From the sequence record NC_042128.1: a DNA stretch of 64,000 bases; one strand, 5' to 3'. The first letter of the stretch is position 1. The number at the start of each line of letters is the position of its first letter. Source of the stretch: Escherichia phage RCS47. The translations under genes were made by a program, and so were the position numbers. The notes beneath the pieces were generated by a model that had not been told where the DNA came from, ran no database searches, and was given only the letters and a program-made list of their open reading frames with translations. Shown one piece after another: positions 43,926 through 45,141 of the stretch.

Positions 43926-44006
43926 CACAACAGGTAAGGGCGCTGGTGTGATTAACCAGATGAACGAGAAGGGGCCATCTGTTGGTCAGCGTCCTTTCCT
44001 GTTGCG
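43926..44006 (+). repeat. hairpin element, family member 0 (cacaacaggtaaggg ... cctttcctgttgcg), followed by T-run
   Basis: long imperfect inverted repeat sharing the conserved ends of units at 44366, 44581, 44788, 45064. Confidence 0.5.
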
Positions 44007-44209
44007 TTTTCTTTTCAGCGTAACAGCGGTGCTTAACAGCACTTTGGGTACAGTTCCACGAATTTACGGGTATATCCCGTCATGCTGAAAGCGCTAATCA
44101 CGCTGGAAGCCAGGGTTGTGCATCCCCTGTTACCGAATTGCAGCCAGGGCGCGGTGCGCCGAAAAGCATACGGAGGTGGAAGCCCTCGCCGGAGACGTAC
44201 CCGGCAAGT

Positions 44210-44285
44210 GATGGTGTAGCTCAGCGGTTAGAGCGGTTGACTGTTAATCAACGGGTCGATGGTTCAAATCCATCCACCATCGCCA
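44210..44285 (+). tRNA. tRNA-Asn (anticodon GUU)
   Basis: hand-folded cloverleaf: acceptor GATGGTG/CACCATC, D stem GCTC/GAGC, anticodon stem GTTGA/TCAAC loop CTGTTAA, T arm GATGG-TTCAAAT-CCATC, discriminator G, encoded CCA. Confidence 0.9.
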
Positions 44286-44287
44286 AT

Positions 44288-44363
44288 GCCGGTTTAGCTC
44301 AGTTGGTAGAGCGCCTGCCTTGTAAGCAGGATGTCAGCGGTTCGAGTCCGTTAATCGGCACCA
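44288..44363 (+). tRNA. tRNA-Thr (anticodon UGU)
   Basis: cloverleaf: acceptor GCCGGTT/AATCGGC, anticodon stem CCTGC/GCAGG loop CTTGTAA, T arm AGCGG-TTCGAGT-CCGTT, encoded CCA. Confidence 0.85.
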
Positions 44364-44365
44364 GC

Positions 44366-44450
44366 ACAACAGGTAAGGGTATTTTGCGACGTCGGAGATC
44401 GCCGAGCTTGGCAGAGGGTTCGAATCCCTACGAAGTACCCTTACCGTTGT
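44366..44450 (+). repeat. hairpin element, family member A (contains a T-arm-like GGTTCGAATCC)
   Basis: acaacaggtaagggta ... tacccttaccgttgtg, ~10-bp terminal stem, immediately after tRNA-Thr. Confidence 0.5.
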
Positions 44451-44580
44451 GATGAATGCGCAGGCTGATGCGCGAAAGACATTGCAGCTATTGCGGAAAA
44501 GAGCTGTTCGGCGGGGCAATTAAACGCCCGTGAGAGTCTGAAATAACCGCAAGCCGGAGATCAGCACCGGTCATCACAAC

Positions 44581-44648
44581 ACAACAGGTAAGGGCATTCT
44601 CCCTTATGGGGCTTGGCTTAAATGCATCGAGTGCTCTTACCGTTGTGA
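44581..44648 (+). repeat. hairpin element, family member B
   Basis: acaacaggtaagggca ... tgctcttaccgttgtg. Confidence 0.5.
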
Positions 44649-44787
44649 TGAAGTGCAGCTCTTTGAAGCAACCAGAAGATAAGCATCTGGCTTCACAACA
44701 TAAACCGCAGGAACGACCAATAAACGGTAGTCCGTATGGAGAACACCCCGTTGAGGAAGAGGCCTGGCCGGAACCGTAACCGGCACT

Positions 44788-44880
44788 ACAACGTTGAGAA
44801 CACTGGCGTAACGGGGTCATATCCCAATCTACGAATAAATGTTGCGTTGCAGCGTGACAACCAGTGTTCTCAACATTGTG
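44788..44880 (+). repeat. hairpin element, family member D (18-bp stem)
   Basis: acaacgttgagaacactgg ... ccagtgttctcaacattgtg; inner module gtaacggggtcatatcccaatctac shared with unit C. Confidence 0.5.
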
Positions 44881-45063
44881 GTGAATGCACAGGCTGATGT
44901 GCCGCAACTACAGTAGTGCGCGCTTTGCGGGGCTTGCTACAACCCTGTGTCGGAGTTCAGCACCGACCATCACAGTTTGATTCTCTGGCATGAGCATAAC
45001 GCTGAAATAAGTCCAGTCTGGTGCGGCCCGATCACCCGCCGTTAGCTCCACGAAACGGAGCAC

Positions 45064-45141
45064 GTAACAGGTAAGAGCATTCTCCTGTAACGGGTTCATA
45101 TCCCAATCTACAGGTCCACCAAGAATGCTCTTTCCGTTGCG
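45064..45141 (+). repeat. hairpin element, family member C
   Basis: aacaggtaagagcattct ... agaatgctctttccgttgcg; inner gtaacgggttcatatcccaatctac. Confidence 0.5.

Follow-up and report, generated by a model that had tools for sequence, protein, structure and literature searches.

A widespread, so far unannotated family of long RNA hairpins among the tRNA genes of a P1-type phage

What are the five long hairpins that crowd around the tRNA genes of Escherichia phage RCS47, and how are they to be read? The question arises in a 64,000-nucleotide stretch of sequence record NC_042128.1 (the window), within what the NC_005856 annotation of reference P1 marks as the untranslated leader of the C1-controlled (that is, C1-repressed) ban operon. 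An initial annotation, made from the letters alone, had placed hairpins at 43926, 44366, 44581, 44788 and 45064, each with conserved ends and compensatory changes in its stem. All five survive closer study: they are genuine members of one structured-RNA spacer family, and that family is widespread and has so far gone unannotated. They are given here with z-scores (fold energy against 200 dinucleotide shuffles per unit) and with scores from R2, a covariance model that we built from full-length family members.

43928-44004, plus strand: hairpin A, with a basal helix of 7 base pairs (bp), a U.U mismatch and a long upper helix, and without the bulged A or a tail (z -5.0; R2 57.2 bits)
44365-44451, plus strand: hairpin B, with a CACAAC/GUUGUG basal helix, a bulged A and a 16-bp upper helix (z -5.4; R2 58.9 bits)
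44580-44647, plus strand: hairpin C, the shortest of the five (z -6.6; R2 51.0 bits)
44786-44881, plus strand: hairpin D, with divergent arms, many compensatory changes and a C.A 1x1 junction loop (z -6.9; R2 47.9 bits)
45063-45141, plus strand: hairpin E, whose apical module is common to D (z -6.9; R2 56.8 bits)

No shuffle folded as well as the native sequence (0 of 200 for each hairpin), and both the minimum-free-energy and the centroid folds of the whole 1.4-kilobase (kb) leader retain all five. A structure scanner whose pattern is a base of CAAC/GTTG and a long upper helix, with an irregularity allowed at their junction, counted 13-15 upper-helix pairs in the five units and 9-11 in background matches within the window; shuffled windows gave 1-9 weak matches each, never with more than 11 pairs. 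R2 matched the five at 48-59 bits and found its next best match in the 64-kb window at 13.9 bits, the five being its own training sequences, so that the informative part of this result is the lack of any further match; family members outside the training set scored 40-52 bits. A mini-hairpin model (R1), in which a GAAA loop joined the arms, had no room for the long interiors; it found unit C alone and was replaced by R2.

The architecture is easily described: a CAAC/GUUG base of 4-7 bp, one irregular position and 13-16 upper pairs, for about 20-22 bp in total. The stems are thus long, as had been claimed, and longer than the 10-18 bp first given for them once the basal helix is included. Above the helix the interior varies freely, from about 10 to 100 nucleotides (nt), and the helix keeps its length. 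The compensatory changes are real; hairpin D, for example, pairs GUUGAGAACACUGG with CCAGUGUUCUCAAC where the canonical arms pair GGUAAGAGCAUU with AGUGCUCUUACC. An intrinsic-terminator scan of the plus strand called none of the hairpins, and no U run follows them, the tails being of the GUGAUGAAU type.

How far does the family reach? A two-arm, free-gap scan of viral contigs gave more than 120 loci whose identical arms enclose at least 10 unrelated interiors, and scans with longer gaps added interior types, for about 20 overall. Copies or parts of copies occur in 112 phage records (Escherichia, Klebsiella, Salmonella, Cronobacter and Citrobacter phages), in 1,362 of 5,426 complete E. coli genomes (about a quarter) and in 925 records of plasmids that span seven genera of enterobacteria; the carriers of the same arms include Stx, Klebsiella and Salmonella phages. 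Among 185,579 species-representative genomes, by comparison, genuine copies came only from one P1-type Escherichia contig; 66 of the 68 matches in that scan were due to chance, and we used it as a null distribution, chance pattern matches in unrelated genomes having 6-10 paired positions against 11-17 in the phage copies. Rfam holds no family for the hairpins, a full-text literature search for the arm sequence returned no match, and copies are almost always unannotated in their records. Lambda and P1 are among the best-studied of all phages, and yet the hairpin is unannotated in every record examined; R2 could be used to annotate these elements.

Lambda has its copy directly after the tR' terminator (at about 44788-44865 of the lambda genome, between tR' and S). 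Both its sequence, CACAACAGGUAAGAGCAUUG...CCAGUGCUCUUUCCGUUGUG, and its fold, which has the bulged A, place it in the family. A module with GUUGUGCUG...CAGCACAAC as its closing stem comes next, and the hairpin is transcribed in the sense of the downstream genes. The lambda copy is single and adjoins no tRNA, whereas P1 carries five copies amid tRNAs and modules. HK022, searched over its whole genome with the scanner and R2, has no member, nor has the K-12 DLP12 prophage or the Q-stx region of 933W, so the hairpin must be an optional insert and not a core part of lambdoid leaders. We also entertained, and rejected, the idea that the hairpins are related to the put antiterminator RNA of HK022, since HK022 carries no member. 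Two observations belong here. The lambda 'orf-64' (44621-44815; 222-416 in our locus L124) covers the 6S RNA, tR' and the hairpin's 5' arm and is likely a non-gene; and Stx2a_1447 (L127, 2378-2512) has a 126-136-nt member in its early-left region after cI, outside the late leader.

Are these hairpins RNA, or are they palindromes that happen to be transcribed? In 25 distinct types with an upper helix of 14 pairs, pairing holds in 94.9% of the cells, and at 13 of the 14 pairs both sides vary; none of 500 shuffles reached the native pairing, and slid registers gave 36-51%. At imperfect stem positions, read in the tRNA-sense orientation, G.U outnumbers A.C by 74 to 30 (2.5-fold), a U.G wobble is conserved in 13 of the 25 types, and the junction bulge, where there is one, always lies on the 5' arm. 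R2 scores on the plus strand exceed those on the minus strand by 14-35 bits. Finally, the tRNA genes that lie at most 600 nt from 98 distinct hairpins number 123 on the same strand and 0 on the opposite one, and none of the loci of these 98 has hairpins in both orientations. Because of the covariation, the G.U excess, the co-orientation and the strand difference in R2 scores, we read the hairpins as RNA elements on the tRNA-sense strand; the same evidence upholds the proposal that they are structured RNAs and not random palindromes or the ends of insertion sequences or of miniature inverted-repeat transposable elements (MITEs).

Their positions with respect to the tRNAs are equally regular. 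Of the 124 distinct contexts, 60 have the end of a tRNA (Thr, Ser or Asn) 3-4 nt ahead of the CAAC, and in tRNA-abutting contexts the helix begins 1 nt past the tRNA's CCA. At the other end, the last base of the hairpin is the first base of tRNA-Arg in loci L147 and L150, and in other contexts a closed module starts just where tRNA-Arg starts in those two. Near hairpins we also came upon two tRNA-like genes that may be interrupted or intron-containing tRNAs: one (L022, 2236-2365) has a long internal insertion, its Rfam tRNA match spanning 130 nt, and the other (L159, minus strand, just after a hairpin) has about 60 nt between its 5' half, which is tRNA-like, and its 3' half, a T-arm/acceptor.

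What, then, fills the space between one hairpin and the next? Every unit had been said to be followed by a related tail; there is one after B, D and E, it is shortened after C, and after A it is absent. These tails are in fact the 5' ends of separate closed modules. That they are modules, one of them STnc100-like, was overlooked in the initial annotation, as were the ban operon leader and the presence of the family in lambda and other phages.

44005-44209, plus strand: module X0, which ends in a CCGGnnnCCGG hairpin next to tRNA-Asn (sequence reading; no Rfam match)
44446-44580, plus strand: module X1, closed by GUUGUGAUG...CAUCACAAC (fold, BLAST)
44642-44792, plus strand: module X2, with a truncated tail GUGAUGAAGUGCAGC and a possible closing pair GUUGUGAUG/CACUACAAC (sequence reading)
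44875-44976, plus strand: module X3, with the tail GUGGUGAAUGCACAGGCUGAUGUGC and the closing pair AUUGUGGUG/CAUCACAGU (fold)
45136-45260, plus strand: module X4, STnc100-core-like, with UGCGGUG...CACCGCA as its closing stem and a U run after it (Rfam RF02076; fold z -4.0)

The modules follow a plan, with GUG(A/G)UGAAU and a small hairpin at the start, CCGGnnnCCGG and a strand complementary to the start at the end, and then the next hairpin. Copies of X1 are about 98% identical in lambdoid and Stx phages (BLAST; the L127 sequence). X3 folds weakly (z -0.8) and is defined chiefly by motifs common to X1 and X4, and the partial fold of X2 (44643-44702) is no better than that of its shuffles (z -0.2); a closing-stem statistic for the spacer modules was dropped, its estimated chance expectation being about 36%. 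There is an overlap between the 5' strand of X1 and hairpin B's 3' basal strand. More generally, GUUGUG, the 3' basal strand of a hairpin, is also the 5' side of the stem that closes the next module, which puts the two pairings in competition.

X4 matches the core of STnc100 (RF02076, model positions 31-147) at 38.3 bits and E 4e-6, which does not reach the gathering score of 47. What they have in common is, at the 5' end, UGGUGAAU with a hairpin and, at the 3' end, CACCGGGAGGCACCCGGCACC with the closing strand, and both RNAs are located in enterobacterial prophages; unlike STnc100, X4 has neither positions 1-30 nor the 3' terminator domain (148-206). A recent preprint classes STnc100 and PasD as related prophage small RNAs (sRNAs). 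The hairpins themselves are not part of STnc100, of which 933W has a full-length copy with no such hairpin beside it, and we rejected the notion that the STnc100 5' end lies inside a hairpin arm, positions 1-30 being unrelated to the arms. That 933W copy (208 bits; L176, 2571-2830) stands directly after stx2B and is followed by AsxR on the opposite strand (88 bits), an arrangement in which sRNA modules are densely packed, as they are in these phage regions. X4 has also left a trace in a host: the cas2-proximal spacer of a type I-E CRISPR array in E. coli EC-1639 (NZ_LR025101.1; L245, 401-432) matches 45227-45258 perfectly over its 32 nt, a minus-strand protospacer where X4 has its 3' end, with a canonical AAG protospacer-adjacent motif immediately 5' (in the run at 45259-45264), from which it follows that this host lineage gained immunity against a P1-type or related element at a non-coding module.

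And what do the hairpins hold within? The T-arm-like GGTTCGAATCC that had been assigned to unit A is in the second unit, at 44366, and the inner module gtaacggg(g/t)tcatatcccaatctac that had been assigned to C and D is in the fourth and fifth, at 44788 and 45064; the lettering had been inconsistent. With a T-arm defined as a stem of at least 4 bp and a 7-nt UUCRANY loop, the interior of unit B has AGGG-UUCGAAU-CCCU, and a scan of units A, C, D and E found none. Such hairpins number five in 1.3 kb of non-redundant interior, against a background of 0.16 per kb (an enrichment of about 24-fold), with 0 on the reverse strand, and their carriers are unit B, the L005 type and a recurrent type of 130-136 nt, or 4 of the 20 interior types. 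The recurrent type (about 126-136 nt; L153-L163, for example L162, 10335-10466) has a 19-bp stem under a tRNA-like multi-branch top (z -7.1), with the T-arms CCGG/CUGG-UUCAAUU-CCAG and GUCUG-UUCGAUU-CAGAC. The T-arm feature is therefore real and limited to a minority of members.

It was natural to think of such hairpins as tRNA-derived minihelices, and the T-arms of unit B and the other carriers support the idea in part; the family as a whole does not share them. ARAGORN and the Rfam tRNA model (RF00005) match no hairpin, and neither that model nor the one for YrlA matches the T-arm-bearing interiors. YrlA (RF02553), which is Y RNA-like, is nonetheless what unit B and the 136-nt type resemble, with their end-formed long stem and T-arm-containing, tRNA-like upper domain; but the YrlA model matches no hairpin, its lone weak match (25.6 bits) overlaps true tRNAs, and most members of the family are without a T-arm.

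The relatives of P1 show what can be changed in such an array. Reference P1 and D6 are without 44464-44629 of the window, the junction falling inside the common 3'-arm/tail repeat. Ro157c2YLVW is without 44378-44576, with its junction in the 5' arms; it has a 157-nt insert exactly at the X2/D border and an additional tRNA-Tyr, and the apical hairpin of its unit E has lost 13 nt, with the stem kept. D6 has an additional module, a tRNA-Ser and one more hairpin. In all cases examined, the indel breakpoints between P1 relatives lie in arms or at unit borders, and a modular hairpin array accounts for the whole-module differences that P1-type phage-plasmids show in their tRNA region. Interiors shrink or lose their hairpin and the stem stays, and so the conserved part is the helix and not the loop.

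What is such a helix for? We would give about an even chance to the proposal that the hairpins are RNA-level punctuation spacers, set in the array of tRNAs and modules in the ban leader and cut by RNase III. Host RNase III would cut the helix of about 20-22 bp; the cut would release the tRNA upstream, left with a 3' trailer short enough to be trimmed, and it would free the GUUGUG 3' basal strand to pair with the downstream CACAAC and so close the next module. RNase III helps to process the tRNA cluster of T4 and separates the early messages of T7 at related hairpins, and the processing stems of rRNA operons release parts that include tRNAs. The present hairpins are close in kind to these known RNase III punctuation hairpins, for in the T7 early-gene sites and the rRNA-operon stems, too, related helices of about two turns punctuate a polycistronic transcript and release its parts. 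New here are the arrays, interleaved with tRNAs and sRNA-like modules, and the combination of conserved arms with free interiors; here, unlike in T7 or the rRNA operons, the units released by the presumed cleavage would be tRNAs and sRNA-like modules and not mRNAs or rRNAs.

The valley of RNase III accommodates about 22 bp of double-stranded RNA (PMC6212723, which also mentions the RNase III processing sites of rRNA operons), and a helix fixed at about two turns, the footprint of the enzyme, whatever interior it carries, is what one would expect of a substrate. There is no single-stranded stretch between the CCA and the helix, so that an endonucleolytic cut in the helix would be the simplest route to a mature tRNA 3' end; a helix of -35 to -45 kcal/mol would probably stop exonucleases acting on their own, and there is no single-stranded RNase E site. 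Of the functions that had been listed for these hairpins, "processing signals" is the best fit, given the tRNA-adjacent positions and the RNase III-sized helices. If the proposal is right, it offers a testable route by which phage tRNAs and STnc100/PasD-type sRNAs are matured from long leaders; such sRNAs bear on regulation in enterohaemorrhagic and enteropathogenic E. coli. We have observed how the hairpins are built, which strand they belong to, the family they form, the contexts in which they sit and the shuffling of modules; the nuclease and the refolding step we infer.

Several things weigh on the other side, and they should be heard together. Both the cleavage and the enzyme are presumed. 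The RNase III processing sites that Daniels et al. reportedly described in the lambda late leader (1988, Virology 167:568) may or may not lie in the hairpin at 44788-44865. A strong terminator (43714-43746) precedes the array, so a transcript from Pban must read through it for the hairpins, the tRNAs and ban to be expressed. In the global fold of lambda, the closing stem of the module beats the hairpin. The set used for covariation was partly chosen by a scanner that looks for pairing, for which reason the retrieval by pattern only, with its null distribution, is the less circular support; and close orthologues, which have little power, show 20 single changes that keep pairing, 17 that break it and 1 double change. 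Many loci are related by descent, so that the counts are not independent. Lastly, the arm sequence is conserved beyond what pairing needs, which may reflect a sequence-specific protein partner or recent common ancestry.

Might the hairpins be products and not punctuation? In this, the main rival reading, they could be stable small RNAs, freed by RNase P and RNase E cuts at their neighbours and acting as T-arm decoys or through loop-loop antisense pairing, a reading that draws on the twenty or so diverse interiors on a conserved scaffold, on the T-arm enrichment, on the tRNA-like junction of the 130-136-nt type and on helices of -33 to -59 kcal/mol that could survive as discrete species. We think it unlikely, since 16 of the 20 interior types have no T-arm, the interior can shrink to about 10 nt (in a 44-nt member, L014) or lose its apical hairpin and leave the stem intact, and the tRNA and YrlA models of Rfam do not match; the "decoys" or "small RNAs" first proposed are conceivable and have no support. 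Nor are we much inclined to see the hairpins as insulators that are never cut, a dense folding of the leader that prevents Rho loading, blocks 3' exonucleases and 5'-end-dependent RNase E and keeps the folding of one module separate from that of the next. The whole leader is indeed untranslated and highly structured, every module has hairpins at its flanks, and the hairpins, with no U tract after them, are no terminators; but a helix 1 nt from the CCA of a tRNA would block exonucleolytic trimming unless it was cut, and the lambda copy lies in a transcript antiterminated by Q, which resists terminators anyway. HK022, too, manages with no hairpin at all.

It is also conceivable that the RNA structure is incidental and that the arms act as DNA, as MITE ends or recombination sites (attC-like, at cassette boundaries). 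Like MITE and ERIC repeats and the attC sites of integrons, the elements are imperfect palindromes in which the ends are conserved, the centre varies and one base stands outside the helix; conserved arms around unrelated interiors look cassette-like, the indel breakpoints between P1 relatives fall in arms or at unit borders, and elements stand at mosaic boundaries in several phage types. Homologous recombination between repeated arms would give the same breakpoints, however, and the orientation of the tRNAs (123 to 0), the absence of any locus with both orientations, the 2.5-fold excess of G.U over A.C on one strand and the conserved U.G wobble are not what DNA sites would lead one to expect. 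No target-site duplications were seen, and copies are confined to phage leaders. MITE and ERIC repeats differ in just these respects, the present elements having one orientation to transcription, a G.U bias and copies only in phage or prophage DNA, and the attC consensus (RYYYAAC...GTTRRRY) differs from our 3' core, GTTGTGA, with its T at an R position. All told, we consider a DNA-level element very improbable. Another reading, in which one stem is at once processing signal and recombination handle and the hairpins bound phage "RNA cassettes," a non-coding analogue of the integron, we regard as speculative and rather doubtful. Were it true, lambda-like, Stx, P1-like and Klebsiella phages would gain, lose and exchange cassettes whose cargo is tRNAs, T-arm-bearing tRNA-like decoys and Hfq-type sRNAs such as STnc100/PasD, and the system would counter tRNA-targeting defences and rewire host regulation. 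Least credible of all, to the point of being hardly worth entertaining, is that the minus strand encodes proteins (plp and upl of reference P1; open reading frames [ORFs] 44488-44907 and 44908-45237) and that the palindromes are incidental. NC_005856 does annotate Plp and Upl over the equivalent stretch (69472-70041; the 44333-44907 region of the window), and ORFs longer than 60 amino acids (aa), which had been dismissed as not credible, do exist mechanically (104 aa on the plus strand, 139 and 109 aa on the minus strand). The dismissal was sound all the same, for these ORFs are without coding support: the two on the minus strand have no Pfam match, substitutions among relatives (14/15/22 and 8/14/10 by codon position) show no third-position excess, and the ORFs are made of repeated hairpins that in lambda are non-coding leader. 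The plp of the reference overlaps the 3' end of tRNA-Thr, ORF lengths shift with module indels, and newer P1 records mostly have no annotation here. Plp and upl are probably annotation artefacts, and the hairpin family suggests that they are not real genes.

The setting of the hairpins is taken largely from the record of the reference phage. The window is that of a P1-type phage; its stretch 43500-45300 is 99.4% identical to phages vB_EcoM-813R1 and JL22 and to one P1 isolate, and against reference P1 the identity is about 99%, with a single gap.

43511-43556, plus strand: promoters P1ban/P2ban with the C1 operator Op72 (Obanab), the start of the transcript (99% identity to the NC_005856 record, L001 1512-1557, offset 41999)
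43651-43752, plus strand: dicF-like region with a strong intrinsic terminator at its end (NC_005856 annotation; terminator scan)
44210-44285, plus strand: tRNA-Asn (GUU) (ARAGORN; Rfam 74.5 bits)
44288-44363, plus strand: tRNA-Thr (UGU), its CCA end 1 nt from the base of hairpin B (ARAGORN, Rfam)
46364-46439, plus strand: tRNA (CAU), trnI of P1, upstream of ban and in the same direction (ARAGORN, ORF list, NC_005856)
46719-48089, plus strand: ban (ORF list, NC_005856)

A consensus scan of 43450-45600 found no sigma-70-like promoter besides P1ban/P2ban. The terminator of the dicF-like region has its stem at 43714-43736, followed by eight T (terminator scan), and the Rfam DicF model gave no match to 43651-43752 at E<=1. 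A match to the permuted transfer-messenger RNA model at 43732-43838 is below threshold (26 vs 47 bits) and probably due to chance. The untranslated leader is 1.7 kb long and heavily structured throughout, with about 900 nt between the end of tRNA-Thr and the first plus-strand ORF. On either side of it the window departs from reference P1. The dmt methyltransferase ORF (40249-43536) has 1095 aa, as it also does in Ro157c2YLVW, against 754 aa (2265 nt) in the reference. At 45292-46336, where the reference has tciA/tciB/tciC, other genes have taken their place, again as in Ro157c2YLVW: a small hydrophobic ORF (45292-45528) overlaps an SPFH/Band-7 protein with a lipoprotein signal (45509-46336; Pfam PF01145, E 1e-30).

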